This document shows, one piece after another, positions 7,201 through 26,218 of a DNA stretch of 30,407 nucleotides. The position numbers were made by a program, and so were the translations under genes. Numbering within the stretch: position 1 is the stretch's first letter; the number at the start of each line of letters is the position of its first letter. The DNA is taken from contig CAZUFC010000103.1 in the NCBI GenBank assembly GCA_964619725.1, positions 1-30,407 on the forward strand, read 5' to 3'. The notes below the pieces were generated by a model. It was given only the letters and a program-made list of their open reading frames with translations. It searched no databases and was not told the DNA's origin. Source of the stretch: an uncultured bacterium. Lineage in GTDB: Bacteria > CSSED10-310 > CAZUFC01.

Positions 7201-7385
7201 CGAGCCTGATCCAGACTTGTAGCCAGAGCCAGATGCAGACCCAGCAAACGATATACTCTATGTTCGGTGTCGCCGAAAGTCCTTGTCCAGACATCATGAT
7301 CGCCGCCTTCAGACAGAAAAGATTTCAACGCGAAATTATCGTCAACCCACAATAAACAACCTTTTGAATAGGACCTCTTCATCAT
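4269..7385 (-). CDS. 1038-aa soluble protein with N-terminal receiver (REC) domain and a large unrecognised body
   Basis: LLWVDDN (acidic pocket), GVVDLRIP (phosphoacceptor Asp), YGLQLA, FSFLSA, AYYPK (Lys) in REC order; GAGGTG RBS; start abuts the upstream stop (7386/7385). Confidence 0.75.
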   Translation of the reverse strand: MMKRSYSKGCLLWVDDNFALKSFLSEGGDHDVWTRTFGDTEHRVYRLLGLHLALATSLDQARKVIKFLESPQHLDTFIVGVVDLRIPRHDGGEPDVKYGLQLAGELYKKGIRFSFLSAKRSETALEELKKEKLEAIAYYPKKSSDGRIMMPESLARAILTEFRNRISWINLQNLYQGLDEYRSTYPGMHKEGRRNKKALLHFPFIGAFRDFVERWEHRPLQRRNLTFVLRCPEDHSDEFVVQCLMIILSQLITGEGDIALKYYNLVDQNEADRFMKADFSVGQDILVFRIHSELNINLKSSSTVMQQNYQKSAVPPERIAELANRTKEATTVFIVPNDDSADPYLEVLPRYQGTYYDDLPLIRDGDQIAREELIRRAAEFVFQRCRLKVDGQPERPLNKLYLNYPEIAINPFNWVALMESKDVEEDLSDPYEILDVFYRVTDELDNLEPENKERLIAGEPLPYDKLLLVAENEIRQKDPVIHHISWYRRALDLWLSSSWHFPFGLSTRVGRPISEQQLYDEKWEDHCLEVAVELSRAYEETEATLGMNGNNPLVQSLMRAKRFLEHPSVKNLIENDQANDDYEGLSFLRWPHLRYPLPAALSRRLKKAGRFLWVQRDYLDLTSVLPAGHSAYELLDTVLGEYARNLNWMKTVSSTLPEGWKQSVEYFTELIESREVKQRWNFNRSEVWDPLLGLLRNALPVSLVYHYVLAGKPLTGNSKNSALHALTKTKGYGTLLAKIRGKRSYALRYGLKMQKRDTRSREQSLKKIRTYGKLAEQYAGAHEDQGRNKLNDLVDFLIELTAAVSKDKRLDEGYGEKNNISDSFAQPLIDIMMHPEFALDEDWYVKPNQLDLNKIDDSILPSIHMPSLFGSKSDFLWHALDLLNYIRIVTSPFRCYDGYSLLACIGDLRILDKDSAPETDSKVIEEIMQILFWSLQGLVAQLKFCLNMMEFPTAEHIPLDALKLETPPDFKKPNKSDMKKLMRIREKNDGRYELFVRGIPGSRTVSNFAYHCKGKVLLWDEKKRERKKRTAKKSTSKT

Positions 7386-10300
7386 TTAACTCACCTCGCT
7401 TATCAAAAGGAAATTCGATACGTTCTCCAATGCTTGAACCATATGCTCAACCTGGTATGCTATCTCGGCTTCGCTCTCTTCCATTAAAGCCTTTAACTCA
7501 CCTTTAACCTTGTCAAATCCGCGTTTCGTTTTCTTCCTGGCTTCCTTTACCTCCTCCGGCGAACTCATCATCTGTTCAATCAAACCCGCTGAATTTTCTT
7601 TTTCATCACTGAACGATATACGTCGCATCTTTTCAATGCAGCTTTTCGACTGCAAAAGAACTTCATCGCAATTATCCACTTCCCTCCTGATTTCCAACTC
7701 ACGGTTCTCCGGACACTTACCTCGTAAATTGTGTCGGATGACGCTGAATATGCCGCTCGAATCCTTGATCAGCGTCGCCCATTCAGCCGCCAATCTGTCC
7801 GGCTTCTCCTTCACCCTAAAAGCGATATTGTTGTTCAAACACCAAAAGAGAAATTTGGGATGAAGCCCAGACAACAAGTCGGCAGATACCTCAATATTAA
7901 GCAATATAGTTTTGTGCATGGTTGTGTTGTTCAACCTCTTTTTGTCTCGCGGTTCTTCCAGATCAGGTATCCCTTCATGCGAGAACCATCGACAAATTAC
8001 TGAAGCCAGTTCTTCCTTGCTCGATGCTTCGGCTTTACTTAAAAACAATACATCAAGTTCGTCGCTGCCGCTGTTTTTTTCAAAGTATCGCTGTAAACGA
8101 TCATCAAAGTCTTCTGCATCGAAAGAGACCTTTTCCGCCTTGTATCGCCTCGCCGGTTCGGTTTCCTCAGAAACGGCATATCCTTTCCTTTCTATCAACT
8201 CTGATAATTGATCCAGGCCTTCGCAAATGGTCCGGACCTCATTCAGTTTTTTCCCTGAAGAAAAAATACAAACCGTCGCTTCATCACACAAATCCCTCAA
8301 TTCTTCCTTAACCACTTTATAACCGGAAGGGATAAAATAGGCATTGTTTTCCAGCGTGCTTTTTACTTGATCGATACCATAACTGGTTACGAGCCAAAGA
8401 GGAGGTTTTCGGTCTCCGTTGCAGACGTTTCTGAAAAAACTCTCCAGCAGATTTATGCCGTATTTTCTGTCAGGTTCGCTGGAAAGGCTGTCCCGTAAAA
8501 TTGTCATATCAGCTATCATTAAACGGGGCATGCATTTCTGCAGGTCCTTTTCTGCATCCAGAAATCCCCTTCGGTGAATGATCGATACCCCCTGCAACGC
8601 CGGCCTCGATCTGAGATATTCGAGCGAATCTTTATAATTGTCCTCCTCATCTTCCACATATAATACATAGGGATCGGAAACCTCCTCTTTCAAACTTTCT
8701 TCTGAAGCTGCAGCTCGTATTCGAGTAAATACCGCCCTTGCCGGCAACGACAATTTCCCCTGAATCCTTTCTTCTGAAAGCATGAAATAGCGAATGTCCG
8801 AGCCATGAGATAATCCGCTTTTCAACTGCATTCGGGCCGCAAATACTCCGACGCCGGTTGATGATGTTTTGTCTTTATTGCGTTCCAGCAACTTGGGTTC
8901 ATCCTGATTCAGCGCAGTCATTCTGTCAGCGGGAACGGGTTTCGTCGAGTTTTCTATGATGAAATCCAGTATCCATTTTGAGTCCATGGCGTTGAAAGCT
9001 TCCCTCGGTCGCGTCTGGATTTGGACCAGTACTTGCCTGGGGGAGGGCGCTGCGGTCGCTCCTGCAGCCTCCACCGCATTCTTGAACATTACGTCAAAAG
9101 TCTCCCGGACCAATGCTTCGGGGAAATCGACTATGATTTTTGGTACTGATGACGGTATATAATTCACGAAAATATCTCTGTTCAGTTTGCCGTCGCTTCT
9201 TTTGATTTCTTCCGCTCGTCGTTTCAAAGCCTCCGTGATCATCTTTTCCGTTATCGCCGGTTTATCTTCATCTCCCTCAAATGTCCTGCCGTCTATCTTC
9301 AAAAGATGTCCCATTATCGCATTGCTCGATGCAATGAATTTTCGGGGCTTTCTCGTCGACTCGGTTTTCTGCTCCAGAACTGGACGAAGCCCCCTCCACA
9401 GTTCTTCAGTCAGCAGTTTCGTTTCCGCCGGAATTTTCTTTTCATTGTTTATACGGTGCAGAAACTGATCCATAGCGCCGGAAATAAGATTCATCCGATC
9501 TTTGATGGCGGATTGCTCCTTTTTCTTGTCCCTCAATTTCTGACGAACTATCAGCTCTATCAACAACTGAAGCGTCTGTCTTTCGGAATCCAATTCGGAA
9601 ATGCTCTTTTCTTCATCGTCATCAGCCACCAGAATTAACGTGAACCTCTCGTTCTCTGAGATTATTAATTTTCCTTCTTTGTCGCGTGCCTCGGGATGCA
9701 GAATCGGATCATACGAGATATAAATGACTTTCGAGAGTCGTTTTTTGTTTTCATATATTTCAACGAGTTTATTCATTTCATCGGCTGATTCCGACCGGCC
9801 GCTTACCTCCTCGGCAAGATCGATTTTCAAATGTTCGAGGTAAGCCCGCTGCAATTCATAAAGCGATTTATTCTCCGTGCTTAAGTCCAGCCCGTGACGA
9901 TATTCGAAAGAGAGTCCCATCTCCGAAAAATCTTTCCAGATTTCCGATTTATCAAGTCTTAAATGTTCTTCGTCCTCAAATAATGAACACAAGATAGCCG
10001 ATAGTTTTTTGTCTACCGAGTATTCATTTTCCGCGAATTCACCTGGCGCATAATGCTTAAAAGGAACTGATTCGAATTGCCTGGCCGTTTCCTCATCATT
10101 CTCCAGTTTTAATTTGCCTTCAACGTTGCGGACGTATAAATCATACTTGTATTGTATGATCTTGTCCGCCACCCTGAACATTTTTAATGACCGGTCGCCC
10201 CGTTCCATACTGGTGCAATAGGCGTTCTGATCCTTCGGGTCCTTGCTCCTCAATGCAGCTTCCAATACACGCAGCCTCACATAGTTAACGTTGGACAAAT

Positions 10301-11507
10301 CTCCCGCCCCCGTCATTCTGAACAGATAAGCCCGGTCAAAAGGATAAGACTGAGAATTCTTAACCCCCTCTATCCTGGCGCATAAGAGGTCTCTAACGAA
10401 TTTTTCCCAGAAATCAAGCGTATCGAATTTCTCCAGGGCGCCTCGATCCTCCTCCGCCTTCAGTAAATCCACCACGCCCTTGCTGTACCAATACCGGGAT
10501 ATTTTGCTCGACTCTCCTCCCGCCTCTTCCAGAGCCTGCTTATATCTATAAGCCATGACGGTATTATTTAATCTGGCTGCCGTTAAACGTAATAGCGCCC
10601 GAAATTCGGAGAGTTGACTTAAATCCGTGAAATCCGCGATATCAAAAACAGCCAAAGATATATCACCTATTCTGTGGTCCGGTCCCACCCGTTCGTCGAC
10701 GAATGACTCATCCAATGGAGTCATGCAGGCCAGAACAAGATCAGTCCTGTTGGGGCTGTCAAATTCCAGATACGGATAGCAGTTTAAAACCGTCTTGTAA
10801 AGATAGTTGATCTCCAACAGTTTTTTCCAGTTGCGAATCAAGGAACGATTGAAACTGTTGACCTCATGAGGAAAAGTCAAATCGATGCTTTTCGTCATGT
10901 TCTGATCGATCAAATAGGACTGATTTAAATGCGACGTAAGAGGAACAAGCAATTCAAGCAGCTCCAGGGGCGTCTGATTGCCGGAATACGCATCGGTCTC
11001 TTCGCTTCCGGTGTCCTCGGATGACAACACTCTTAATCGCTCTCGGATCACCGACTCTTTTACATCACGACCCACACGATTGTAATCGTTGATAAGCTGA
11101 ATAATTATGGAATTGATCGATTCACGGTCGATCGTCCCGCCTGAGTTGCCGGGATAGATGATTCGCGACGAATATTGACGATCCTTGATGCTGAACTCCA
11201 CCAGTAACCGCAGTCTCTGTAGAATGCTTATCGGATTGTTCTTCCGGCCGTCGTCTATCTGTTCAGCGCCGAACATAAAATTCGCCGCAATAAAAAAATA
11301 GGTTATCTCGCTGATTTTTACCCTTGATAGAACTCCGTAGTCAATGTTTCTCGTCAACTCGTCCGTCAAATAATTCCGTAACGTTCGATGGTATATGCAA
11401 TCCAGATACAATGACAGATTCTGGGAACGACGCTTTACCGCCTCCTCCCGGTTGCGTTCATTGAGATCAATGATTGATATCCCTTCCGGTACGTTTTCAA
11501 AAGACAT
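7386..11507 (-). CDS. 1373-aa soluble atypical hybrid histidine kinase (unknown N-terminal input, H-box, HATPase_c-like, REC, C-terminal helical domain)
   Basis: DQFLHRINN (H-box-like, ~9457), FDVMFKNAVEAA (N-box), FIIENST (degenerate G1), STGVGVFAAR (G2), REC motifs VLYVEDE / LMIADMT / YGINLL / WLVTSY; AGGAGG RBS upstream; no TM segments seen. Confidence 0.75.
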   Translation of the reverse strand: MSFENVPEGISIIDLNERNREEAVKRRSQNLSLYLDCIYHRTLRNYLTDELTRNIDYGVLSRVKISEITYFFIAANFMFGAEQIDDGRKNNPISILQRLRLLVEFSIKDRQYSSRIIYPGNSGGTIDRESINSIIIQLINDYNRVGRDVKESVIRERLRVLSSEDTGSEETDAYSGNQTPLELLELLVPLTSHLNQSYLIDQNMTKSIDLTFPHEVNSFNRSLIRNWKKLLEINYLYKTVLNCYPYLEFDSPNRTDLVLACMTPLDESFVDERVGPDHRIGDISLAVFDIADFTDLSQLSEFRALLRLTAARLNNTVMAYRYKQALEEAGGESSKISRYWYSKGVVDLLKAEEDRGALEKFDTLDFWEKFVRDLLCARIEGVKNSQSYPFDRAYLFRMTGAGDLSNVNYVRLRVLEAALRSKDPKDQNAYCTSMERGDRSLKMFRVADKIIQYKYDLYVRNVEGKLKLENDEETARQFESVPFKHYAPGEFAENEYSVDKKLSAILCSLFEDEEHLRLDKSEIWKDFSEMGLSFEYRHGLDLSTENKSLYELQRAYLEHLKIDLAEEVSGRSESADEMNKLVEIYENKKRLSKVIYISYDPILHPEARDKEGKLIISENERFTLILVADDDEEKSISELDSERQTLQLLIELIVRQKLRDKKKEQSAIKDRMNLISGAMDQFLHRINNEKKIPAETKLLTEELWRGLRPVLEQKTESTRKPRKFIASSNAIMGHLLKIDGRTFEGDEDKPAITEKMITEALKRRAEEIKRSDGKLNRDIFVNYIPSSVPKIIVDFPEALVRETFDVMFKNAVEAAGATAAPSPRQVLVQIQTRPREAFNAMDSKWILDFIIENSTKPVPADRMTALNQDEPKLLERNKDKTSSTGVGVFAARMQLKSGLSHGSDIRYFMLSEERIQGKLSLPARAVFTRIRAAASEESLKEEVSDPYVLYVEDEEDNYKDSLEYLRSRPALQGVSIIHRRGFLDAEKDLQKCMPRLMIADMTILRDSLSSEPDRKYGINLLESFFRNVCNGDRKPPLWLVTSYGIDQVKSTLENNAYFIPSGYKVVKEELRDLCDEATVCIFSSGKKLNEVRTICEGLDQLSELIERKGYAVSEETEPARRYKAEKVSFDAEDFDDRLQRYFEKNSGSDELDVLFLSKAEASSKEELASVICRWFSHEGIPDLEEPRDKKRLNNTTMHKTILLNIEVSADLLSGLHPKFLFWCLNNNIAFRVKEKPDRLAAEWATLIKDSSGIFSVIRHNLRGKCPENRELEIRREVDNCDEVLLQSKSCIEKMRRISFSDEKENSAGLIEQMMSSPEEVKEARKKTKRGFDKVKGELKALMEESEAEIAYQVEHMVQALENVSNFLLISEVS

Positions 11508-11572
11508 GCTTATGCCTCCTTTGCTTTGTTAAGCCTGAACAGCAGTGATTCCAGAGATTTTCTTTAATCGCA

Positions 11573-14401
11573 TCAACTCATTTTTTCCTCTAAAACCATC
11601 CCGATAAGCAGAGAAGCGGGAGGAAACGTGATGATATACTTGAGATAAACCTCCAGGAAAGCTCTGGGATTCCGGGAAGTTCCTTCGATGAACGCCGTAA
11701 GCTGATCGACGAATCCTTTATTGACAAGCCCCACCTGTTCGCCGTCGAACAACGAATAGGCCGTCAGACCGACCAGGCTTAAAAACAAAGCCAGGATATT
11801 TCCGACAGCCCATACACGGGACCAACGCCTGAAATAACTCTCATTGCCGAACAGACGATTCGTCTCTCCCGATAAACGGTCCTTGATGACCAGGTTGATA
11901 TAAAGCCAACCGCCGACGACCACGAGAACAGTCAAAAACAGCGTCGACTGCCAGGTCGCTGCCGCGTAATAACTCCAGATATCACTGTTTCCTCCGACCA
12001 GAAAACAAACCATGTATCCGACTATGGCTGATAATATTATATCGGATCGCCTGCGCACCCAACGACCCATCTGAAGAAAACCGAAACGTCGAAATTTATT
12101 TCGGTATAACAATCGATCTGCTTCAAGCGCCATCGTCCAGGCAAAGCGCTTTTTCGACCACTCCTGTAAAAAACGTACTTCCTTTTCGTCCGGCTGCTCA
12201 CCCGGAAAATCCTCCATAATGATCCTGAACAGCTCATTCTCATCTCCGCCTTCAGCAGTAGTCTGTATATCGCGCAAACGATTGACCTTATAATCGCAAC
12301 GTTCTCGAACCATATCCAGTTGAATCGCTGATGCTTCCCTGTATATTTCCGGAAAATATCTTATTACCATCCCTTCAAGTTCACGCAGATTCTCCAGCAG
12401 CTCTGCAGCGATATCAAATGCCGTTTCAAAATCGCTCAGATTCGCATTCTCAAGAAGATAATGCAAATGCCTGATTCTCTTCATCAAGTCGCCGGCTTTA
12501 TGGGCCAGAATAGATGACCGGCGGGTAAGTCCTTGCTCCATCACTTGTATAACTTCTTCATCTGTCGGAAGCAACTCATCGTCAGATGAAATCATTTCGC
12601 AGAACAAGGAGGGGCGTATAATTCGACAAAGTACATCTTCATTAACGGCAAATTCAGTATCGATGCTCGCCGCTAAATCAAACTGATCCATTAGACGAGC
12701 GCCTGTTGTATCTCCGATCTCCGTGAAATAATTCGTCAAGCTCTTGATTTGCTCTGTCAATATGTCATTTTCATATTTTAAAGCGACTTCCTCGTCTTCC
12801 GCCATTGTTTCCGCAACATCAAGCATTTCGATCATGATCTCCAGTTTGCTTTTCAGCTTGCTGTCGAAAGAGAACGAAGACATCTCTTTGAATATCTTCG
12901 TCAAGGGGTCCAGGTAGAGAAGTGTCCGCACATCATTGAAAAAACGATCCGGGTCTTCGTTCAATGCCGCCTGGAGCCTGTAAAGGCATAACGTCGACAG
13001 GTCCTTCACCATTGTGGACCGCAGAGAGGATGACTTCAGCGTCCTTAGAGTCATAACCCATACCGGCGATAAAAGACGCGTGTCCTGTTTGCCGTGAGCA
13101 TCCGCTGTCAGTATGACATCCTTTATACCGCGAAGGATGAATGTTTGAATATCGAGATTATTCGACGAAAGTTTAAATAATTGATGGAAAAGAGGAAATC
13201 TTCTGTTGACTACGCTTACCTTTTTGCTTTTTCGTTGAGCGCGATTCTCAAAATCATTTATTAATGCCGTTGCGGAAATTATAATCATAATCTGCAATCG
13301 CCTGGGCAGGACGGAGTAATCAGTTGAGAAAAAAGACCTTTTCAACAGTTTGTTTTCCATCATGTTAAGTTGATTCTTAAGATTAACGGAAGATTCCCGA
13401 AAACGGGCCCAGAATATGACCGAGTTGACGAAATCTTTCATATCAGCATCCAGATCGTCAATACGGCATAACGCTCTTATTTTCTGCTCAAATTCAGGCT
13501 TCCAGGGCAGTGCGATTACTGCCGTCAAAAAACCGCTCTCCGATACGTTCATTCCCGCACCCAGCCTCTGAAAAAATTTATCCCGAAACGCGTCGCTCAA
13601 AACATCCTTGCCGTTTTTTCCGGGCGGACCCAGCAGACTTTTCATCAGTCTGGTCACTGAGTTGAACCAGGATTTAAGATGAATTGATTGTATGGTTGCT
13701 TGTTCGGCTGTTTCCAGCAATGTCGATGTCCAGCCGGCCACGGTTTCGGCATCCGCTATTCCTGTTGACGCCATAGTTTCCAAAACGCCGGGCAAACTGA
13801 CGATCCAGAACGGTTCGCTCCTGGCTGCCTTCAGACACTTTGAACTGTCCGAAAAAACCGTTTTCTCCAGATCCTCCAATGTGAAAAATCCGTTGCTGAC
13901 CGCATCAGGCAGTCCCCAGACCATGCTGGAAAAGACTGCCGCTATCCCGCCCTTTCCCAGATAACGCCCCGCTTTCCATCCTTTCACTACCATCCCGCTG
14001 AAATATTGAAGAATGGTCATTTTTTGAAGTAAATCAGCATTCGGCTCTTTCCCCAACTTCTCTTTTACCTTATTGACCCCGATTCCTTTTCGGCATACCG
14101 GTACGAAAAATTCCTCCTTCGGATCAGCATAACTCATCAATGCCGTATGAGCATGACGAAAGCGATGATGATCCTCCCAATCAAGTATGCCGTCCTGAAT
14201 CTCTTCAAGCAAAACGGCATCAACACGAGCCAGGCGACCCAGCAATCGACTCGAAGAAACGAATATTTCTACCGATTCAGACCTGTAAGCATCCAGAAGA
14301 AAATCGCGGAGTTCACATCTTTCCGATTCTTCGAGGTTAATCCATTCTTCCGGTTCCGGAGCGCCGTTCAATCGCTGTAAAATAGTCTGAGATTCCCTCA
14401 T
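11573..14401 (-). CDS. 942-aa hypothetical protein: large alpha-helical cytoplasmic region plus ~4 C-terminal TM helices
   Basis: Long ORF. Hydrophobic segments IILSAIVGYMVCFLVGG, LFLTVLVVVGGWLYINLVI, VWAVGNILALFLSLVGLTAYSLF and YIITFPPASLLIGMVL occur only in the last ~150 aa. Confidence 0.85.
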   Translation of the reverse strand: MRESQTILQRLNGAPEPEEWINLEESERCELRDFLLDAYRSESVEIFVSSSRLLGRLARVDAVLLEEIQDGILDWEDHHRFRHAHTALMSYADPKEEFFVPVCRKGIGVNKVKEKLGKEPNADLLQKMTILQYFSGMVVKGWKAGRYLGKGGIAAVFSSMVWGLPDAVSNGFFTLEDLEKTVFSDSSKCLKAARSEPFWIVSLPGVLETMASTGIADAETVAGWTSTLLETAEQATIQSIHLKSWFNSVTRLMKSLLGPPGKNGKDVLSDAFRDKFFQRLGAGMNVSESGFLTAVIALPWKPEFEQKIRALCRIDDLDADMKDFVNSVIFWARFRESSVNLKNQLNMMENKLLKRSFFSTDYSVLPRRLQIMIIISATALINDFENRAQRKSKKVSVVNRRFPLFHQLFKLSSNNLDIQTFILRGIKDVILTADAHGKQDTRLLSPVWVMTLRTLKSSSLRSTMVKDLSTLCLYRLQAALNEDPDRFFNDVRTLLYLDPLTKIFKEMSSFSFDSKLKSKLEIMIEMLDVAETMAEDEEVALKYENDILTEQIKSLTNYFTEIGDTTGARLMDQFDLAASIDTEFAVNEDVLCRIIRPSLFCEMISSDDELLPTDEEVIQVMEQGLTRRSSILAHKAGDLMKRIRHLHYLLENANLSDFETAFDIAAELLENLRELEGMVIRYFPEIYREASAIQLDMVRERCDYKVNRLRDIQTTAEGGDENELFRIIMEDFPGEQPDEKEVRFLQEWSKKRFAWTMALEADRLLYRNKFRRFGFLQMGRWVRRRSDIILSAIVGYMVCFLVGGNSDIWSYYAAATWQSTLFLTVLVVVGGWLYINLVIKDRLSGETNRLFGNESYFRRWSRVWAVGNILALFLSLVGLTAYSLFDGEQVGLVNKGFVDQLTAFIEGTSRNPRAFLEVYLKYIITFPPASLLIGMVLEEKMS

Positions 14402-14689
14402 AATCCTGGCTTTCTAATAATTCACGACTCGTATCGACATAGGCGTATTCTCCTCATCTGATGGTGGGAAATTTACCCGGTCGTTTTTTTGACGAAACAA
14501 ACTGTTGCCGTTGTATTATCAGTCCCAAATTTTCTTGAGATGGAATGTACGAAATCTTTATTCTTGGATTATTCATTGTTTTGACGTTCAGGAATATAAA
14601 TTTCATTGCCTTATCGTTTTCCCAAATCAGACTTTTTGGATCAACGCCATATAGCCAGGCTTCCGTTTATTCAACAATCAGTTTACCGG

Positions 14690-16978
14690 TTAAATTCCTT
14701 TTAGTTTATTACCGTTTTCCGCTAATATCAAAAGCTTGTCTCCCTCCCTTGCCTGATAATTTTTGTCTTCGCCCACAGGATTGGTCATAATGCGATATGT
14801 TCGACCTTTCGAAGTATTTTCTTCTATCTGTATAGCCATCAGCATCGTATCTCTCTCCCTGAGTAGAGAAGAGATTTCATCGAATGTGTTGCCTTTCAGT
14901 TTGCTGTTTGAGGCGATTTCACGCGAGTAAACCTCGTTGGTTTCGCTGAAGGTCAGTATTTCACTGATAAAGCGAGATAAGCCCTGATTCATGGCGGAAT
15001 GAACGATCAGTTTTTCGCTGATGTCTCTTGTGCTGATTATTTCATCGCATTCGGCATTTTCAAGATGTATCCTGTTTTCCGGGTTCATTAGCTCCGCTAT
15101 TGTATAAATGCTTGATTTGCGCTTGCCGCTTCTGATTAATTCATCGCAGTATTTTTCAATGGCAAGTACGGACAAAACGGTCGTGTCGTCACAATGAGGG
15201 TTGGCGGGATTGGAAAGAATTAATGCTGTCTTTGCAGTCAAAAAATTCGCTTTGTCGAGATCGCTTCTCACCGTCGCCTTCCCATTGACGTATCCCGCGT
15301 ATTTGTCATCCAACCGGTTTTCCATGATAAAATCAGGATTATCGCCGTTCGGCGCCAGTATGACGATTTTATTGCAGTCCGCCGCCTGTTCGTTCGTCAG
15401 GTTCTTTACTATACCGGGAGCTCTCTCGTTCCATCCGCAGATGATTATATGGTCCTTGCATTCTGACGGTTCCATACCCTTCACTCCTTGCAGCTTTTTG
15501 ATTATTTTGTCGGAAACGAAAACTCCGCCCAGCGCAATTAAGCCTCCAAAACCGATGAAGGGCAGAGTGGCTGCCGCAACCTTTCCCACAAGTGTTTGCG
15601 GAAATCGCTGTTCATTATACCCGCAGCCGGAAAGAACATAGAGCCATACCAGAGTATCCTTTATGTCATAGTAGTCCTGAAGAACCGCTCCCGGTTGCTT
15701 CATTTCATATTGTGTCTCAACATGTTGGATTATGCGGGCATCCAGAAGCAATAGAGACAGGATAAACAATAATCCCAAACTATATTTGTGCCGTTTTAAC
15801 CAGTGAAAAAAACTCAATCCCAGTCCCGCACTTCTCCTGTTCCCCGGGAATCTCTTTCCCTTAAAAAACAAAGGCCCGGTCAACAGAAAAATGAAGATTA
15901 CAATAGGAATAAAAATGATGATCCACAACAGGTTGGAATACCAGGAAGATTCGATCATTCCATGTTCACGATAATACTGCCTGGCTCCTCGATGCAGATA
16001 AACGGACATTCCGGTCAAAGCTGAAGCCCGGGAGATATTCCCGGCTATCGAAAGTTTGTTCTTCAGCAGTTCAAGCGATCCCTCATTAAAAAGTATATCC
16101 AGTAATCGGTAAACCAAAACAGGATTCATGTCTTTGTGCGCTGCCAGCAGAGCGCGTATGCCTACTCCTTTCACTCCATAAGGCTGTTCAATATACGTGT
16201 TGGGTTCAATGCTGCTGGAACAATAATAAGGATATTTCTCTTTTAATTTTTTTATATATTGATCATCAATCGACAGCAACCGGCCTCCGGAACGCCTGAT
16301 TGCCTGCACCACGCTGACTGTGGGGACTCCCGCCGTTAAAAAGGCAGCATCGACGGGCGCAGAGACCCCGTAAGACAATATGTCGTCGAGTGACAGATTC
16401 CTTTTTTTTATATCAGATAAACCGATGCCGTGAATCGTCAGAATATGCTGAGCATTGAATTGAGTTCCGCTGTTCTCTTCTCCGATCGAAACGATTTTTC
16501 CCTTTAAATCGCTGATGCTTCTTATATCGTCACAGTTGAAAACAAGGATATGTACCGTTTCTGTATATAGCGATGCAATGCCGGTAAGACAATCATGAGA
16601 TGTCTCGAACATCCCGACTCCCTCACGAAAACAAAAGGCAACGTCATTTTGTATAAACGCCAGATCCGCCGAACCATTCAAAATTTTCTCCGCATTTTCG
16701 ACTGAACCAGCGGATGACTGAACTGATACAACGCTGTTGGGCGACCCTCTTTCAAATATAGCCTGGAGACTCTCAGCCAGCGGATAATAAGTCCCATTCT
16801 CATGGCCTGCTGAAATCCTTATTTTTAAGCTCTGAGAGAATACGCACGGATTGCAGACCATAAGGACGATTGACCATCCGAGTATAATTCGTGAAAGTCT
16901 TGTGATACTATGCAAGAATGACTTCCAGAACATAGATGCTGTAACTCTCTCGAGTCGCAATTTCACATCTCCCGACAT
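14690..16978 (-). CDS. TAXI-family solute-binding domain fused to a 2TM/pore ion-channel module and RCK (TrkA_N/TrkA_C-like) gating domain
   Basis: TAXI motifs SAGHENGTYYPLA, SSAGSVEN, DLAFIQND, IASLYTETVHILV, DLKGKIVSIGEENSGT, LHRGARQYYRE; two TM helices; pore-helix/filter-like TLVWLYVLSGCGYNEQRFPQTLVGK; inner helix; RCK motifs DHIIICGWN, VNGKAT..DLDKAN..AKTALIL, IAELMNPENRIHLENAECDEII. Confidence 0.88.
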   Translation of the reverse strand: MSGDVKLRLERVTASMFWKSFLHSITRLSRIILGWSIVLMVCNPCVFSQSLKIRISAGHENGTYYPLAESLQAIFERGSPNSVVSVQSSAGSVENAEKILNGSADLAFIQNDVAFCFREGVGMFETSHDCLTGIASLYTETVHILVFNCDDIRSISDLKGKIVSIGEENSGTQFNAQHILTIHGIGLSDIKKRNLSLDDILSYGVSAPVDAAFLTAGVPTVSVVQAIRRSGGRLLSIDDQYIKKLKEKYPYYCSSSIEPNTYIEQPYGVKGVGIRALLAAHKDMNPVLVYRLLDILFNEGSLELLKNKLSIAGNISRASALTGMSVYLHRGARQYYREHGMIESSWYSNLLWIIIFIPIVIFIFLLTGPLFFKGKRFPGNRRSAGLGLSFFHWLKRHKYSLGLLFILSLLLLDARIIQHVETQYEMKQPGAVLQDYYDIKDTLVWLYVLSGCGYNEQRFPQTLVGKVAAATLPFIGFGGLIALGGVFVSDKIIKKLQGVKGMEPSECKDHIIICGWNERAPGIVKNLTNEQAADCNKIVILAPNGDNPDFIMENRLDDKYAGYVNGKATVRSDLDKANFLTAKTALILSNPANPHCDDTTVLSVLAIEKYCDELIRSGKRKSSIYTIAELMNPENRIHLENAECDEIISTRDISEKLIVHSAMNQGLSRFISEILTFSETNEVYSREIASNSKLKGNTFDEISSLLRERDTMLMAIQIEENTSKGRTYRIMTNPVGEDKNYQAREGDKLLILAENGNKLKGI
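15473..15489 (-). promoter_or_regulatory. Putative internal RBS (AAGGAG) and in-frame ATG (Met502) at the start of the RCK domain
   Basis: Minus strand reads AAGGAG TGAAGGGT ATG (8-nt spacer), in frame, just before the HIIICGW RCK motif; would give a 261-aa soluble RCK. Confidence 0.6.
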
Positions 16979-16983
16979 TGACT

Positions 16984-17085
16984 TAGAAAAAATTGTGAAA
17001 TATTTGACGAAAAAACAAAAGCCGATCGAAAAAATTCAAGTGATTTCGATATGTTAGGCTGTCCTTGTAAAGAGTCCTGAAGTTC
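16984..17085 (+). repeat. Dispersed repeat family B, shorter copy
   Basis: First half matches the reverse complement of 3211-3268; second half (atatgttaggctgtccttgtaaagagtcctgaa) matches 19807-19839. Confidence 0.65.
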
Positions 17086-17167
17086 AATGCTTCTAAGCCG
17101 ATATTCCATAGTTAATGAAAAATCCTTATTCGACGACATATTACAGCTTTAATGCAACCAAAATAAT

Positions 17168-17316
17168 GGGGCTGATCAAACAGTGGTTACACTTCTTTCA
17201 AACCGTTTGAAAGTTTTTTTCAGTAATCGGTATCGCAATCGGGATCGAAATTGAAACGAAATGATGGGATATTCTGTCGAATTGTAACCTCAAAAGTCGC
17301 ATTTTTGATCAATGCC
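17168..17316 (+). mobile_element. MITE-like family A, copy 2
   Basis: ggggctgatcaaa...ggttacacttctttcaaa...gtaatcggtatcgcaatcgggatcgaaa...gatattc...attgtaacctcaa...gcatttttgatcaatgcc. Confidence 0.75.
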
Positions 17317-19874: not shown

Positions 19875-20176
19875 GACTTGAACCTTAATCGGGCAAGTCC
19901 GGATATTTGAGGGAGGCTTGGTGATGAATATCACGGCTGTAAATGAAAATGAACTGTTTTTTTTGACAAAATAGAGATGAGTAATCAGTTTAGCGGCATC
20001 ATCAGGGAATGTTCATTTGAAATATTAATGAGAAGCTTAAAGCGGCAGTTGGGAAAATCAGTCGTTTGATGTGAGAAACCCACCGAAAAGTGAGTTGACT
20101 GATAGAAGCATCTGATTTAGAATTTACATGGAAATTTCATGGATGTCGCGGCGAAAATCTGAGTAGTAAATTGATC

Positions 20177-21760
20177 ATGAATTGCGTTAAAGTGCAGCAA
20201 AACATTAAAATCAAACTGGAAAATCTCTCCAGGAGCTTCAATAATAAACCGGTCATTTCAAACCTCAATCTGGAAATCAGAAAAGGTGAATTCCTTGTAC
20301 TGCTGGGTAGATCGGGCAGCGGAAAATCCGTGCTGATGAAGCTGATGCTGGGATTGCTGGTTCCGGATGAGGGCAGAATCGTAATCGATAATCAGGACAT
20401 TTGGAAACTAAGCAAAAAGCGGCGGCTGATGATCGCGGAAAATTTAGGCGTAGTGTTCCAGGGCGGCGCGCTTTTTAACGATATGACCGTAAGGGAGAAT
20501 CTCAAAGCGGCTTTGAGCGATCAAACGGAGCAGCCGGAAAAATTGATAGAGGATATCGCCGAATCCTGCAATTTTGACCTTGATCTGATTGACGGTTTGC
20601 CGCATGAATTGAGCGGCGGATTGAAACAGAGAGCTGCGGCGGCGCGTGCTTTAATAAGGGAGCCGGATTTGCTTTTTTTTGATGAGCCGACTTCGGGACT
20701 GGACCCGATGAATTCAGAAACGATATCGAATTTCATAAGGCAATGCCATGAAAAGAAGAACACCACATCAGTAATGATAACTCACGACATGCGAAGCGCG
20801 GCCATAGCCGCTGACCGAATCTTGTACCTGGACCGAAGAAAAAGAACCTGCATTGAACTGATAAACGAAGCGGAACTGGCAAAGCTTCGATCAGGCGACG
20901 ATCCCGTCAAAAAGGTTGAAGAGAGTATCAGGGAGAAGATCGAATTAAAGACATCAGAAAAAGGAGAAAAAATCCAGCCGGCTGGTCGACATGAAAAAAG
21001 CGCAGTAAAATTATTAACCGAACAAACGGCTTCCGTTTTTTCAACCATCGGTCATTTGTTTACGTCGTTAGGACGGCTGAGGTTGTCCTCTCCGCCGGAG
21101 AAGACGCTGAGTTGTCTGAGCAACGTAATAATTCAATCGTTGCCTTTGATCATAACGTCGGGTTTTCTGATAGGATTGGCTTTAATCCTTTCCACGATAG
21201 TGGGATTGGCGGAATACGGCGCGGAGCATGAAGCGTCCAAAATTTTAGGGGCCACGCTGGTGAGGGAAGTCGGTCCGATACTGGCTGCTTTATTACTGGC
21301 GGGAAGAATCGGAGCATCCATAGCTTCGGACATAGGTTTAAGGACGACTGGAAAGGATTTCGATGCCTGGAGAACAATGGGGAAGGACCCGGATGAATTG
21401 TTTTACACGCCTTTGTTCATTTCCATTATTATCGGATTCCCGATTCTGCTGATTGTAGTAGATGCTGCGGGCTATTTCGGAGGCTTGGCGGGATATGCCG
21501 GAATATACGGATATTCGGCTGTGGGATTCAAAGCAGGATTCTTTGAACTGATCAACTGGAATGATGTCCTCTGTACATTCATAAAAGGACTTATCTTCGG
21601 ACATATCATCCTCTCGATAGCCTACCAGGCCGGTATGGACGTCCTGCCTCCCGCCAGAACAATCGGAAAACAGGTAACTCATGCGGTAGTAGCGGCATCC
21701 CTGGTCGTCATCGCCGCTAATTTTTTTATCATGAGGATTTATTACTTATTAACGAGTTAA
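20177..21760 (+). CDS. Fused MlaF-like ABC ATPase and MlaE-like permease
   Basis: Walker A GRSGSGKS, Q-loop VFQ, signature LSGGLKQR, Walker B LLFFDE, H-loop ITHD; then MlaE-like LVREVGPILAALLLAGRIGASIASDIG with multiple TM segments. Confidence 0.9.
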   Translation: MNCVKVQQNIKIKLENLSRSFNNKPVISNLNLEIRKGEFLVLLGRSGSGKSVLMKLMLGLLVPDEGRIVIDNQDIWKLSKKRRLMIAENLGVVFQGGALFNDMTVRENLKAALSDQTEQPEKLIEDIAESCNFDLDLIDGLPHELSGGLKQRAAAARALIREPDLLFFDEPTSGLDPMNSETISNFIRQCHEKKNTTSVMITHDMRSAAIAADRILYLDRRKRTCIELINEAELAKLRSGDDPVKKVEESIREKIELKTSEKGEKIQPAGRHEKSAVKLLTEQTASVFSTIGHLFTSLGRLRLSSPPEKTLSCLSNVIIQSLPLIITSGFLIGLALILSTIVGLAEYGAEHEASKILGATLVREVGPILAALLLAGRIGASIASDIGLRTTGKDFDAWRTMGKDPDELFYTPLFISIIIGFPILLIVVDAAGYFGGLAGYAGIYGYSAVGFKAGFFELINWNDVLCTFIKGLIFGHIILSIAYQAGMDVLPPARTIGKQVTHAVVAASLVVIAANFFIMRIYYLLTS

Positions 21761-21776
21761 CAAAACGGAGGACAAA

Positions 21777-22406
21777 ATGAGTTCATCCAAAACGCCTATG
21801 ATTGTAGGACTGGCTTTCGTTGCCCTTACGCTTCTAGTGATCGTCATCATAATCGGCGCGCCGGGATTCAACATACAGGTTAAATTTGATGATTTGAACA
21901 AGATCAGGCGAGGCGACAACCTGTACATGAACGGACAGGTTATAGGAACGATAACGGGAACAAAATTAAAATCGCCCGGCGAGGGCATTATAAAAGTGAA
22001 CATCAAAAATCAATACAAAGATTTCCTGAATCAATCCACCATCTTCACCATAGCCGGCGATAAATTTATAACGGGAAGAAAATGCCTGCTAAGTAAAAAC
22101 AGAGATCAATCCGCTCAGCCGGTAGAATCAGGACATGTTTACGAAGGCGTGGGAAGGATAGAATTCGAACTGGTCCGACTGACTGACGGCGCCGGCAGAA
22201 TATGGAACGGTTACCTCAAGGATATGGCTATAGAATCAATCGACAAAACAGGCAAACTTTCAAAAGATGTGATGGATAAAATAAAGGAGCTGGAACGGGA
22301 AAATCATGATGAAATCGTCGGTTTTATGGATCAACTCAAAAAAGAAGTCGAAAATCTAACGCCGGAACTCAAGAAACAGATTGATGAGCTGATGAGAGGG
22401 TTTTAG
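21777..22406 (+). CDS. mlaD: MCE/MlaD-family protein
   Basis: N-terminal TM anchor, MCE-like VKFDDLNKIRRGDNLYMNGQVIGTI...DKFITGRKCL, helical tail; GGAGG RBS; directly follows the MlaF-E fusion. Confidence 0.75.
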   Translation: MSSSKTPMIVGLAFVALTLLVIVIIIGAPGFNIQVKFDDLNKIRRGDNLYMNGQVIGTITGTKLKSPGEGIIKVNIKNQYKDFLNQSTIFTIAGDKFITGRKCLLSKNRDQSAQPVESGHVYEGVGRIEFELVRLTDGAGRIWNGYLKDMAIESIDKTGKLSKDVMDKIKELERENHDEIVGFMDQLKKEVENLTPELKKQIDELMRGF

Positions 22407-22656: not shown

Positions 22657-24426
22657 TTAATGAGTTATTTTCATCACTGTCACAATCTCAGGCGGTGAGT
22701 TAAGCTCTGGCATGGGAACAGGTTTGAAATCACCCGTTTGCATAGATAGTTTCAGAAAATTATGTAACTTTAAATTGACTACATTTTCCACAATTATTAC
22801 GGCAATTTCAAACTCATAACCGATATCCGCTGAAATACCATAATGAACGGTTAGTTTCCATTCATTATCTCTTGGATCTACTATAGCCTCTCCCTGCGGC
22901 CACCACATTCCGTGAAATCCTTTATTGCAATGTACAAGCACCCAAAGGTGTTCGCCAGACTTAAGTTTAGCAGAGCCTTTCACGATTCCGGTTCTTCCTA
23001 CACTTTCCCCTTCCATCGGTCGATAAATCGTTATTCCAGTAGACATTGGGATTACTCCTGCGCAATAAGTATTATGAATATCTTCAAATAAAAAATAATA
23101 TTTCTGAGCAGCTTCATCAAAATGATGATTTTCTATATCGCTGGATGCGGCAAGATATAGCTGTTGGTCGAGCTGAGCAATACTTTCATCTGATAATTGA
23201 AGTAAAATGTCATTATAAATTTCGCGAGCTTTGTTTATGTTTGTAGGATTCCCAACAGAAAAAAAATCGTTCGCCTCACAGACTTCTTTAAGCAATCCCT
23301 TCTCCTTGAGTTCTTCGCCGACTGAGGATTTTTTACGCTTCCTTACTATGTTTAAGCTGATAGGTTCACACATCCATACACAATTTGGTTCGTTACTTAT
23401 TATGTCACCAGGATTAATACCCTGATCCTTCGTAAATAATCCAACGTTTATAGAGTAAGCTCCCTCTTCCTGGATTATTATTTCTCCGTAAAAATTACCG
23501 TTGGAGTTTGTCCTGAGTTCTTGTTTTATAAGGAATACGCGCTTATTTTCATCCTTAACGATCGGCAAAAGTTGTAAATTATTTAACTCAAGGAAATTGC
23601 CGACATTTTTAAGGTAGCTGTCCTTATAAAGAAAAGATAAAAATCCGCTTATTTCAATTTTTTCTCTTTCATAACTTTTATACATTTCCCTGGGATTTTT
23701 CATTTTGATTTCAATTTTCAAATCGTTTAATTTTGCATCTGAAATCATCGGTTGCTGGAAAGTTTTACCAATATCAGGAGTTCTCATAAGAAATTTAATA
23801 ATATTTTCGGCGCTGACGCCAATATGAAAATGTTTAGTATTTGTTAGCATGCCAACGACTGACTTTTCCCTAAATATGGGACTCCCTGACATACCGGGGG
23901 TAATCGTACCGCCGCTGAAAACAATATCAGTTTTATACCTTACAAATCTGCAGTTCCTTTCAACATGCCATAATCCATCAATTGCACCTGGAACACCGAT
24001 AACAGTTATTTCATCATTATCCTTGAGAATGACATCCGAATCTATTTCAATTGTTGAAATTTTTCTAGCTTGAATATTCTTGTCTAAATTGAGTCGCAGT
24101 AAGGCAACATCAATGCCCGAATCGATACTTACAAGGCTGGCTGGAAAATTTTCTTCCACACCATAAAGGCGCACTCTGGGATTTTGATCCAAACAAATAT
24201 TCTCACTCGAAGATATCACATGACTTGCAGTTAAGATGTATAGGATGTTGTTTTTTTTCGAAATTATAAAACCAGTTCCCTCACCGCAATCACTTTCCAT
24301 TTGAACGACACAAGATTTCATATTTTCTGTTTCATTTCTGTCTATCAAATATTTTATCATCATTGCAGCAGGCAGAGAAATAATTGCTATTAATAAAATT
24401 GTTACAAACGATGATCGTTTCGTCAT
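22657..24426 (-). CDS. Membrane-anchored or secreted trypsin-like (S1) serine protease with long C-terminal extension
   Basis: GTGFII, ILTASHV (His), IDVALL (Asp), GMSGSPIF (Ser); N-terminal hydrophobic helix; AAGGAG RBS at 24434-24439. Confidence 0.88.
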   Translation of the reverse strand: MTKRSSFVTILLIAIISLPAAMMIKYLIDRNETENMKSCVVQMESDCGEGTGFIISKKNNILYILTASHVISSSENICLDQNPRVRLYGVEENFPASLVSIDSGIDVALLRLNLDKNIQARKISTIEIDSDVILKDNDEITVIGVPGAIDGLWHVERNCRFVRYKTDIVFSGGTITPGMSGSPIFREKSVVGMLTNTKHFHIGVSAENIIKFLMRTPDIGKTFQQPMISDAKLNDLKIEIKMKNPREMYKSYEREKIEISGFLSFLYKDSYLKNVGNFLELNNLQLLPIVKDENKRVFLIKQELRTNSNGNFYGEIIIQEEGAYSINVGLFTKDQGINPGDIISNEPNCVWMCEPISLNIVRKRKKSSVGEELKEKGLLKEVCEANDFFSVGNPTNINKAREIYNDILLQLSDESIAQLDQQLYLAASSDIENHHFDEAAQKYYFLFEDIHNTYCAGVIPMSTGITIYRPMEGESVGRTGIVKGSAKLKSGEHLWVLVHCNKGFHGMWWPQGEAIVDPRDNEWKLTVHYGISADIGYEFEIAVIIVENVVNLKLHNFLKLSMQTGDFKPVPMPELNSPPEIVTVMKITH

Positions 24427-24430
24427 TGCT

Positions 24431-25603
24431 TTACTCCTTTCGTCGTGGCAATATTACTTGTAATAATTTACCGGATGTCAAAATGCCAGAGATAGCAAAT
24501 CCGAAAACAATATAGAATTTTTTTAACTTATTATCATACCACAAAGTATCAAAAATCGATAACCTTAAATCTCGCTCGTGATCACCGCATAAGAGCTTAA
24601 TAACATCAGCTTTTCCACATATTGATATTGATAAGCTGATTTCAGAATTTTGTCCTGTTACAATATGTCCTTTTTCTATTCGAAAATTTTCCATTTTATC
24701 GATTTCTAAGAAATGATAGGGCTTGATTCCGATAGACGGCGCATCTGGATATATTGGATATTCCAATTGAAATTCTTCTAAAAAACTCGATACTATTTTA
24801 TAATGTTCGTCATAACTGCAGAATTTGATTGAGTCAACAGATATTCCCTGCCGAGGAAGAAGATTGATGAAATTAATGTTTTTTTCCGGTAAAGCTAGAG
24901 TCAGCGAATAGTCATTTCCCCATGATTCAGCACGAACACCTTCATCATTTTTCTGAGTTAATGAGAAATTATCGTTATCTTTATCAGAAATGCCATTCAA
25001 TAAAACATTGTTGTAGTGAACTTTGAATGAGTCATTAAGGAAGATTTTAGTCAATGATATCTCGTTTAAACTATTATGAATTTGAATTTTCAAATTTCTC
25101 TCTTTTCTAAATAAAGAAAGTTTAAATCGTGTATTTTTTACAGCCAATATTTTGTCGACCAATCCTGATTCAGTCATTTTGTGATGACTTTTTTTTGAAT
25201 TGATTTTTTGAAAATTTATAAAAGAAAACAACCTGTTTTCATTAGAACCATCAATAATAAGAGGGAAAGGATAAAACAAATTGTTTTTGTTGCATTTAAT
25301 TTGGGGAGCATTCTCTTTATTAATTTCTATTCCGTCGATTTTTGAAAAAAGTTGTAAAGATTCAAAATTGTTGATTCCAATTGAAGAAAAGGGAACTGAA
25401 TTCAGAATTGTACTCAGTTCATCATGAGGCATAGTTAGAGAGAATACAACATTTTGCAATGATATATTTGAATAAATTAGCGTTTTAACGGAAAACAGCA
25501 TAGTAAGGGGAAAGAGAAGCAAAAACAGAAAAGCTGTCCAATAATATTTAATAAACCATTTCTTTGATGAGAAAAAAATATCTTTAACAAAAACAAAAAT
25601 CAT
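24431..25603 (-). CDS. Hypothetical protein with N- and C-terminal TM anchors flanking a beta-rich soluble domain
   Basis: 390-aa ORF; TM-like YYWTAFLFLLLFPLTMLF and FYIVFGFAISGILTSG; ATGA overlap with the upstream stop; ends 4 bp before the protease start. Confidence 0.8.
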   Translation of the reverse strand: MIFVFVKDIFFSSKKWFIKYYWTAFLFLLLFPLTMLFSVKTLIYSNISLQNVVFSLTMPHDELSTILNSVPFSSIGINNFESLQLFSKIDGIEINKENAPQIKCNKNNLFYPFPLIIDGSNENRLFSFINFQKINSKKSHHKMTESGLVDKILAVKNTRFKLSLFRKERNLKIQIHNSLNEISLTKIFLNDSFKVHYNNVLLNGISDKDNDNFSLTQKNDEGVRAESWGNDYSLTLALPEKNINFINLLPRQGISVDSIKFCSYDEHYKIVSSFLEEFQLEYPIYPDAPSIGIKPYHFLEIDKMENFRIEKGHIVTGQNSEISLSISICGKADVIKLLCGDHERDLRLSIFDTLWYDNKLKKFYIVFGFAISGILTSGKLLQVILPRRKE

Positions 25604-26144
25604 TCAATCTTTTTCCTGTGATAAAAAGTCACTCTAAAATTAATTGGTATTTTCTTTTCCTTAGTCAATCCATCAATTGTCAAATCATATTCCCCCTCGA
25701 TTTCCTGGGATGAATCCCAAACAAGGCTAATGGGCGTTTCCGCATAAAGTAAAGGATAAATTCTATGATAAGAATCATTCTCCGAAGATTTTTTCTTTAT
25801 ACTACACTTTAAATCAACAACGTCCCTTATGGCTTTAAAAGCGAAATAATATTCTTTTACTTCTTTGGGAGGTTTTGAATGATAAAATATCGCCGGTGCG
25901 ACACGCTTTTCTCTGCCGATTTTATCTTTCTCCAACACGATTATAAAACCCAAATCAGTCAATTCCATACCGTGAATTTTCATTATCACTTCCTGGTAAG
26001 GCCATTGAAATTCATTATAGCAGTTCTTCCTCCATTTCAGTGATTCTTTTGATTTCATCCAGTAATAAAACTCATTGTCAATTTCTAAAGCAGTTATCTC
26101 GACTTGATTGGACTTTGTTAAATAGAATTTGATTTTCAAGTAAG
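25600..26144 (-). pseudogene. 3' part (179 codons) of a secreted-protein gene interrupted by the 26145-29789 element
   Basis: Joins in frame with 29791-30006 across the AGTAAG duplication: ...RLKRDTY|LKIKFYLTK..., restoring a 251-aa ORF. Confidence 0.9.
26139..26144 (+). repeat. Left target-site duplication AGTAAG
   Basis: The same hexamer lies at 29790-29795, immediately outside the right end. Confidence 0.9.
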
Positions 26145-26193
26145 TGCATAGGTTACACTAAAAAGGACAAAAGTCTGAGGAATTAACCCGACA
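26145..26193 (+). repeat. Left terminal inverted repeat
   Basis: tgcataggttacactaaaaaggacaaaagtctgaggaattaacccgaca; shares TGC, TAGGT, TAAAAAGGACAAAA and ACCCGACA with the reverse complement of 29740-29789. Confidence 0.88.
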
Positions 26194-26218
26194 TCTCCGC
26201 ACGAGTAGGAGATTGAAA

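Follow-up and report, generated by a model that had tools for sequence, protein, structure and literature searches.

The question raised by this locus is whether a bacterial binding protein has become the sensor of an ion channel. The locus is a single open reading frame (ORF) on the minus strand of a 30,407-nucleotide stretch of contig CAZUFC010000103.1 (assembly GCA_964619725.1, from an uncultured bacterium), which was analysed whole and is referred to here as the window. A first-pass annotation had read its product as a signal-like segment followed by an intact TAXI solute-binding domain, one extra transmembrane (TM) helix, an M1-pore-M2 channel unit and an RCK domain, and had proposed a new receptor-channel gated by an external ligand and by cytoplasmic RCK ligands. 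We find that this domain order is genuine and is conserved across a large family. We put at roughly 60% the probability that the protein (hereafter the TAXI-RCK protein) is a subunit of a tetrameric cation channel of the MthK/CASTOR lineage, gated by an amino-acid-like ligand from outside and by an RCK ring from inside. Residue numbers follow the 762-residue ORF throughout, and the features of the gene are collected in Table 1.

A TAXI binding domain continuous with an MthK-like channel

The N-terminal part of the protein is a TAXI domain. Pfam assigns residues 55-340 to NMT1_3 (TAXI fold, PF16868; E 1.1e-55, 189.7 bits against a cut-off of 27), the NCBIfam model TIGR02122 (TRAP_TAXI) reaches 199 bits, its cut-off being 84.35, and in a comparison with solved structures this part matches the Thermus TAXI protein 1us4 (9e-32). 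Neither Lig_chan nor SBP_bac_3 matched the protein at E <= 1. At the other end, Pfam recognises Slo-like_RCK at residues 507-613 (E 2e-8), with TrkA_N (22.1 against 23.8 bits) and Castor_Poll_mid (21.2 against 26.7 bits) just below their cut-offs. A phmmer alignment of residues 442-698 with residues 49-279 of MthK takes in the pore helix, M2 and RCK (1e-8 with the whole protein, 4e-9 with its C-terminal part), and the DMI1 and CASTOR rings match the RCK part at 3e-7 to 7e-6.

Hydropathy analysis finds four segments, at residues 28-46, 350-368 (TM0), 399-417 (M1) and 470-490 (M2), the first serving as a signal peptide or, if it stays uncleaved, as an anchor. The loop between TM0 and M1 carries eight K/R and no D/E, the turret between M1 and the pore helix one K/R and four D/E, and the stretch after M2 five K/R. 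This positive-inside pattern predicts an outward-facing TAXI domain and turret and an inward-facing RCK domain, the self-consistent topology that the first-pass annotation had described.

AlphaFold2, run with a 91-row alignment of the family, gives a model with a mean pLDDT of 90.2 and a pTM of 0.70; across the TAXI domain, pLDDT is 93-98. Besides the helices listed in Table 1, the model contains a short helix at residues 381-396, between TM0 and M1, and a non-helical filter loop; the re-entrant pore helix implied by the M1-pore-M2 reading is present. In Foldseek, the model matches TAXI proteins with TM-scores of 0.85-0.87 (normalised to the target) and whole MthK chains (e.g. 6u68_A, E 9e-18 over 357 columns). 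Structural alignment with VIA-align places residues 47-343 on the TAXI structures 4ddd, 1us4, 9ibo and 8s4j with Z 35-36, a root-mean-square deviation (rmsd) of 2.4-2.7 and 291-294 aligned residues, and residues 509-762 on the MthK RCK domain with Z of about 20 (rmsd 2.5, 216 aligned). Full-length MthK aligns over residues 397-762 with Z 19.5, and the RCK rings of CASTOR, POLLUX and DMI1 reach Z 16.7-18.1. Each of the parts named by the first-pass annotation, from the signal-like segment to the RCK domain, is therefore borne out. A four-copy structure prediction of residues 340-505 scored 0.31, against a mark of 0.42 and with controls at 0.00, and is counted neither for nor against a tetramer.

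Table 1. Features of the TAXI-RCK gene and protein, with nucleotide positions in the window
Feature	Residues	Position	Strand	Basis
Whole ORF	1-762	14690..16978	(-)	762 amino acids + stop, single intact frame
N-terminal hydrophobic segment	28-46	16841..16897	(-)	Hydropathy; model helix 15-42; 5 K/R in residues 1-27
TAXI solute-binding (Venus flytrap) domain, predicted extracytoplasmic	50-343	15950..16831	(-)	Pfam, TIGR02122, 1us4, VIA-align
Extra TM helix TM0 (chain runs outside to inside)	345-373	15860..15946	(-)	Hydropathy peak 2.93; model helix; positive loop after
M1 outer helix	398-427	15698..15787	(-)	Hydropathy, model; full-length MthK aligns from residue 397
Pore helix (439-452) and filter loop, ending at near-invariant P460	439-460	15599..15664	(-)	phmmer against MthK, model DSSP, family columns
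M2 inner helix	463-499	15482..15592	(-)	Hydropathy, model, MthK alignment
Candidate internal start: AGGAG 15488-15484, 8-nt spacer, ATG of M502 15475-15473	502	15473..15488	(-)	DNA sequence and family comparison
RCK domain, predicted cytoplasmic	508-762	14693..15457	(-)	Pfam Slo-like_RCK; MthK RCK and CASTOR ring structure matches

The fusion defines a widespread and diverged family

A search of 1.84 billion cluster representatives (50%-identity clusters) with a profile made from five full-length relatives gave at least 150 matches, all of the listed ones at E <= 1e-89. The query, four earlier matches and 148 of the matches listed were combined in an alignment of 153, from which seven pore-less TAXI-repeat proteins were removed; family counts below refer to the remaining 146 members. 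At least 300 residues upstream, the part that holds the TAXI and pore regions, together with a residue at the RCK start column are found in 143 of them. A profile search of a word-indexed database with the 91-row alignment returned 11 matches and added no named relative.

The distribution of the family is wide but patchy. In a scan of one genome per species with the 5-row alignment, 80 loci were kept, of which 10 match from TAXI through RCK, one reaches the pore before its contig ends and 69 match in the TAXI part only. Full-architecture loci occur in a Pacearchaeota archaeon and in Cloacimonadota, Phycisphaerales, Anaerohalosphaeraceae, Myxococcales, Deltaproteobacteria and Pseudomonadota. 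Within the phylum of one Cloacimonadota carrier, 7 of 201 sampled genomes have a TAXI-to-RCK match, and none of the 13 other genomes of the window's own phylum (14 in the collection) has the fusion, one of them having an unfused channel. The Pacearchaeota (DPANN) genome, of about 0.7 Mb, has no DctM match and keeps a full-length member (L004, 3765-5885), which is striking for its small size.

Divergence of the two ends of the protein is correlated: over 138 members, the identities between pairs in the TAXI part and in the RCK part give a rho of 0.45, against a maximum of 0.10 in 200 label permutations, which fits a long-standing fusion. Three members were considered as natural RCK-less forms, which would indicate that the TAXI domain can gate the pore by itself, and were set aside. 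P0005 (459 amino acids) breaks off inside the RCK start motif, a few residues from its beginning; P0094 turns into low-complexity, Arg/Gly/Pro-rich sequence after M2; and P0037 ends inside M2. All three look truncated or frameshifted rather than representing an architecture of their own, and P0005 and P0094 are likely frameshifts or decaying copies.

The annotation's word 'new' holds in one sense and fails in another. The family is not unseen: it is widespread and present in databases under generic automatic names, such as 'TRAP transporter TAXI family solute receptor', 'hypothetical protein' and 'voltage-gated potassium channel', and ESM Atlas clusters of 51, 92 and 140 members with the same domains carry automatic names only. 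It is uncharacterised, and no description of a TAXI-channel protein was found in the full-text literature searched, a collection beyond which further papers could exist. A 2010 survey of prokaryotic glutamate-receptor relatives mentions neither TAXI, TRAP nor RCK, and in a 2025 review of modular K+ channels GluR0 appears in one passage, as a bacterial glutamate-activated channel, and periplasmic binding proteins go unmentioned.

A conserved ligand site and independence from TRAP permeases

The glutamate site of the TAXI protein VcGluP is formed by Y45, S75, Q93, E125, Y200 and M201, with Y45 and Q93 as key residues; among TAXI sequences at large, Y45 is found in 78% and Q93 in 54% (PMC11574862, from the portion of the paper available). 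In the phmmer alignment to VcGluP these six positions correspond to Y64, S92, Q110, E140, L214 and T215 of the TAXI-RCK protein. The four side-chain ligands (Y45, S75, Q93 and E125) are thus identical, and Y200 and M201 are replaced. The identical residues are conserved in 89-97% of the family (Y64 in 141, S92 in 130, Q110 in 141 and E140 in 140 of the 146), a pattern that points to a shared working binding site. By this comparison, the ligand of the flytrap is probably glutamate or a related alpha-amino acid.

We further note that the fusion is independent of TRAP permeases. As the first-pass annotation had observed, no DctM or DctQ gene is seen in the window, here among the 14 ORFs of at least 120 amino acids that were scanned. 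The only TAXI domain in the whole 9.17-Mb genome assembly is the one in the fusion, and the genome's two DctM genes, both on contig C2, each adjoin a DctP of their own. Among five other fusion-bearing genomes, a DctM match was found in two, distant from the fusion gene, and in none of the other three, the completeness of these genomes not being given. Across lineages the fusion gene has no conserved neighbour; only three close Cloacimonadota relatives share neighbours.

A pore lacking the K+ channel signature

In the phmmer alignment, G451-C452-G453-Y454-N455-E456 stand opposite T-V-G-Y-G-D of MthK. The family consensus at the filter is S-G-F-E-D, with S in 97 and T in 24 of the 146 members at column 452, G in 132 at column 453, F in 64, Y in 26 and L in 24 at column 454, and E in 75, D in 17 and N in 14 at column 455; downstream, column 460 is P in 143. 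K+ channels carry the signature TXVGYG (PMC12332018, available text). The corresponding pattern T-[VIL]-G-[YF]-G is found in none of the 146 members, and G-F-G in one. The family thus retains the pore helix and the filter glycine but not the K+ signature. Our reading is of a cation pore whose mouth is acidic and whose selectivity for K+ is predicted to be weak or absent. 'K+ channel' would be an unsafe label for the protein because the pore lacks the signature.

An unfused relative of 404 amino acids is encoded in another genome (G013) of the window's phylum (L085, 1462-2676, minus strand). Its filter is of the S-G-F-E-D type, a Met stands just before RCK, the RCK start motif is shared and there is no TAXI domain. 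Its existence shows that the channel core is a family of its own, to which the TAXI domain and TM0 are added as an N-terminal module.

A single RCK domain with a candidate internal start

In MthK, four extra RCK domains made from an internal start at Met107 complete an octameric ring (PMC2154359, available portion). The TAXI-RCK gene has a candidate counterpart in the ATG of M502, which lies eight codons 5' of the RCK start motif. AGGAG precedes this ATG by 8 nt, a spacing equal to that at the gene's probable start. Initiation at M502 would give a free RCK domain of about 261 amino acids.

This feature is widespread among members with a single RCK domain. A Met 4-14 residues before the RCK motif is found in 78 of 91 members of single-RCK size and in 11 of 52 long-tail members, against a chance expectation of about 17% calculated from a Met frequency of 1.6%; the single- and tandem-RCK members form separate clades, and the counts overstate the number of independent events. 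The size classes reflect RCK content, as two RCK-profile domains are found in 51 of 51 members of at least 950 amino acids and in 0 of 92 of at most 810, three members of intermediate length being excluded from this count. At the DNA level, a Shine-Dalgarno (SD)-like core lies 4-11 nt before the pre-RCK ATG in 8 of the 11 single-RCK loci with DNA that were examined (three of the eight being close relatives, at 60-61% identity); in the same genes, such a core precedes 5 of 117 other in-frame Met codons and, over all codon positions, 325 of 7263. In the members of at least 950 amino acids (e.g. P0007, P0044 and P0072), RCK is in tandem and the internal Met is mostly absent. This split of the family into single- and tandem-RCK forms parallels the one that sets MthK apart from Slo, GsuK and CASTOR.

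Comparison with known channels and binding proteins

A close parallel in channel design is MthK. Model, alignment and structure match all agree that in both proteins one RCK domain comes after M1, pore helix and M2, and the two also share the RCK start motif H-[IV]-[IV]-I-C-G-W and the internal Met just before it. The TAXI-RCK protein differs in its added N-terminal TAXI domain and TM0 and in its filter, where G-C-G-Y-N-E replaces the T-V-G-Y-G-D of MthK and the K+ signature is lost.

The pores of CASTOR, POLLUX and DMI1, which are plant nuclear-envelope channels, are not known to be of the K+-selective type. Their RCK domains are similar to that of the TAXI-RCK protein in both the structural and the phmmer comparisons given above, and the long relatives in the family share their tandem RCK arrangement. 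The TAXI-RCK protein itself differs from them in having a single RCK, with Castor_Poll_mid under its cut-off, and these channels have no extracellular binding domain.

In GluR0, the binding domain is split around an inverted pore. What the TAXI-RCK protein shares with GluR0 and the ionotropic glutamate receptors (iGluRs) is the concept alone, namely a Venus-flytrap domain on a tetrameric pore-loop channel, together with ligand-site residues that match a glutamate-binding TAXI protein. Its binding domain is of the TAXI class and is continuous, placed N-terminally before TM0 and not split; its pore loop is predicted to enter from outside, as in K+ channels, and is not inverted; and it has an RCK ring domain. 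The TXVGYG of GluR0 (PMC12332018, available text) is also absent from it. The first-pass annotation was thus right to set the design apart from that of GluR0.

With the binding proteins of TAXI-TRAP systems (TtGluBP, 1us4; VcGluP, 8s4j and 9ibo), the TAXI-RCK protein shares the fold, 25-28% identity and the four side-chain ligands of glutamate, and it differs in that its chain runs on into a channel and in having no TRAP QM partner. A precedent for the fusion itself is the TAXI-GltS gene fusion, in which the solute-binding protein (SBP) is thought to feed the fused transporter; there, as in the BP0403 system of the same paper, a TAXI domain serves, and is fused to, a membrane partner other than TRAP, but this partner is an elevator-type Na+/glutamate symporter and not a pore-loop channel (PMC12344293, available portion). 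The words 'channel', 'RCK' and 'potassium' do not occur in the available text of that paper, and the available text of the VcGluP paper (PMC11574862) makes no mention of channels.

Proposed mechanism and alternative explanations

We propose that four subunits would form an MthK-like pore. Four TAXI flytraps would cover its outer side, each of them anchored through TM0 and perhaps also through an uncleaved N-terminal helix. Four tethered RCK domains and four free ones, started at the M502 ATG, would make up an octameric gating ring as in MthK. Closure of a flytrap on its ligand would work on the turret, or else on TM0 where it packs against M1 and M2, and the RCK ring would act on M2, as it does in MthK; opening would then need, or be tuned by, both an outside ligand and a cytoplasmic RCK ligand. 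The architecture set out by the first-pass annotation, and the logic of it, stand; gating by external and RCK ligands, like tetramer formation, ion conduction, the identity of the ligand and the coupling of flytrap to gate, we infer from the nature of the parts. A fuller version, that the family consists of amino-acid-gated cation channels and is a second, independent receptor of the 'binding protein on pore-loop channel' kind, with a non-inverted MthK-like pore, acting as coincidence detectors of an outside, glutamate-like nutrient and an inside RCK signal and having an octameric ring completed by internally translated free RCK, we hold tentatively and at somewhat short of even odds.

Several observations weigh against the gated cation channel. 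Ion_trans_2, which the first-pass annotation had named for an architecture search, is not called by Pfam at E <= 1, the pore being recognised through MthK homology and fold; and the lack of the K+ signature bears on both conduction and selectivity. Only one of the three Ca2+ ligands of MthK is kept (E210 as E629), D184 corresponding to about N590, where the alignment adjoins a gap, and E212 to M631; across the 146 members, these columns have D in 86, E in 134 and a hydrophobic residue in the third. The same four ligand residues are common in ordinary TAXI proteins too, which makes the assignment of the ligand weak. The clade structure behind the Met counts and the relatedness of three SD-positive loci reduce the force of the internal start. 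Finally, iGluRs link both lobes of the binding domain to the pore, whereas the TAXI domain joins here by a single helix.

Departure of the filter from the K+ type would also fit a TAXI domain that hands its ligand to a pore-loop domain, the latter having become a facilitator for an organic solute rather than a gated ion channel. The partners of TAXI proteins described to date are all transporters, and the TAXI-GltS fusion (PMC12344293, available portion) offers a precedent for an SBP-fed conduit. We nevertheless regard it as unlikely, as the narrow re-entrant pore has a G-aromatic-acidic filter, the RCK ring is typical of ion channels, the unfused relative has the same pore with no TAXI domain to feed it, and an acidic filter suits cations and not glutamate-like anions. 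About as improbable is that the two halves work separately, with the fusion serving only to anchor an SBP for some other transporter (TRAP-QM or GltS-type) or to co-localise K+ and glutamate handling. Many TAXI proteins are indeed membrane-tethered (PMC11574862, available portion) and orphan SBPs exist (PMC12344293, available portion), but a fusion kept in at least 143 diverged representatives with correlated TAXI and RCK divergence argues against mere tethering, as do the three of five other fusion genomes (completeness not given) with no DctM match, the DctP partners already held by both DctM genes of the window's genome and the lack of a conserved partner gene nearby.

A degenerate pore could also be a scaffold, in which case the protein would be a non-conducting receptor whose ligand signal is relayed to RCK and from there to another cytoplasmic target. 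The filter is degenerate relative to K+ channels, and RCK/KTN domains regulate separate transporters elsewhere, to judge from the title of Roosild et al. (2009). Conservation of the pore helix, of the filter glycine (132/146), of P460 (143/146) and of M2 is what would be expected of a working pore, and no output domain is recognised by Pfam; this explanation seems to us slightly less likely still than either conduit or tether. The chance that the fusion arose by mis-assembly, or because the stop codon parting a TAXI gene from a channel gene was lost, is negligible. The same architecture recurs in independent assemblies from many sources and phyla, and the Logan contigs agree: among four DNA runs that contain the stretch, all from one study and labelled microbial mat metagenome, one contig of run X1 spans 14500-17201 with 0 differences, and contigs of run X2, which comes from another sample, cross both junctions, TAXI-TM0 over 15846-16313 and M2-RCK over 15063-15579, also with 0 differences. 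No RNA run is among those listed as containing the stretch.

Implications

If the proteins of this family are ligand-gated, the joining of a Venus-flytrap sensor to a tetrameric pore would have taken place in prokaryotes at least twice and by different wiring, which would bear on the origin of glutamate receptors. The family would also extend the partners of TAXI proteins beyond transporters (TRAP and GltS) to channels, and would provide a compact natural system for the joint control of a gate by an extracellular sensor and an RCK ring, as well as a natural chassis for the engineering of ligand-gated channels. The non-canonical, acid-rich filter would represent a further, unexplored type of selectivity, and the internal-start signal predicts an RCK ring of 4+4 composition.

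The gene and its surroundings

The database copy of the TAXI-RCK protein (P0002) has 756 residues, which matches a start at the TTG of codon 7 (16960-16958, minus strand). Because GGGAG lies 8 nt 5' of this TTG (16973-16969) and the database copy agrees, the TTG is probably the true start of the gene, giving a product of 756 amino acids. The gene is flanked by non-coding DNA of about 470 bp upstream and about 290 bp downstream, and it therefore looks like a separate transcription unit. Many short, loose-ended contigs map to two parts of the upstream intergenic DNA, where the summed contig depth in run X1 is 174 (16944-17037) and 70-329 (17132-17300), compared with 8.2 in the gene itself; these two parts look like a repeat that occurs many times over in the metagenome.

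Directly 3' of the channel gene, and on the same strand, lie three successive very large ORFs of 1038, 1373 and 942 amino acids (4269-14401), none of which has a Pfam match at E <= 0.01; the product of the 942-residue ORF has several hydrophobic stretches at its C-terminal end. On the plus strand, at 20171-22406, one ORF of 529 amino acids joins an ABC ATPase (ABC_tran) to an MlaE permease domain, a fused MlaF-MlaE, and is followed by an MlaD protein. The end of the contig is occupied by a low-GC island (23001-29749, with 0.30-0.36 GC over 23001-26000) that contains a trypsin-like peptidase gene, beside which two rve-type integrase genes flank a DnaG-like primase with zinc ribbon and Toprim domains. 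This island is probably a mobile element.

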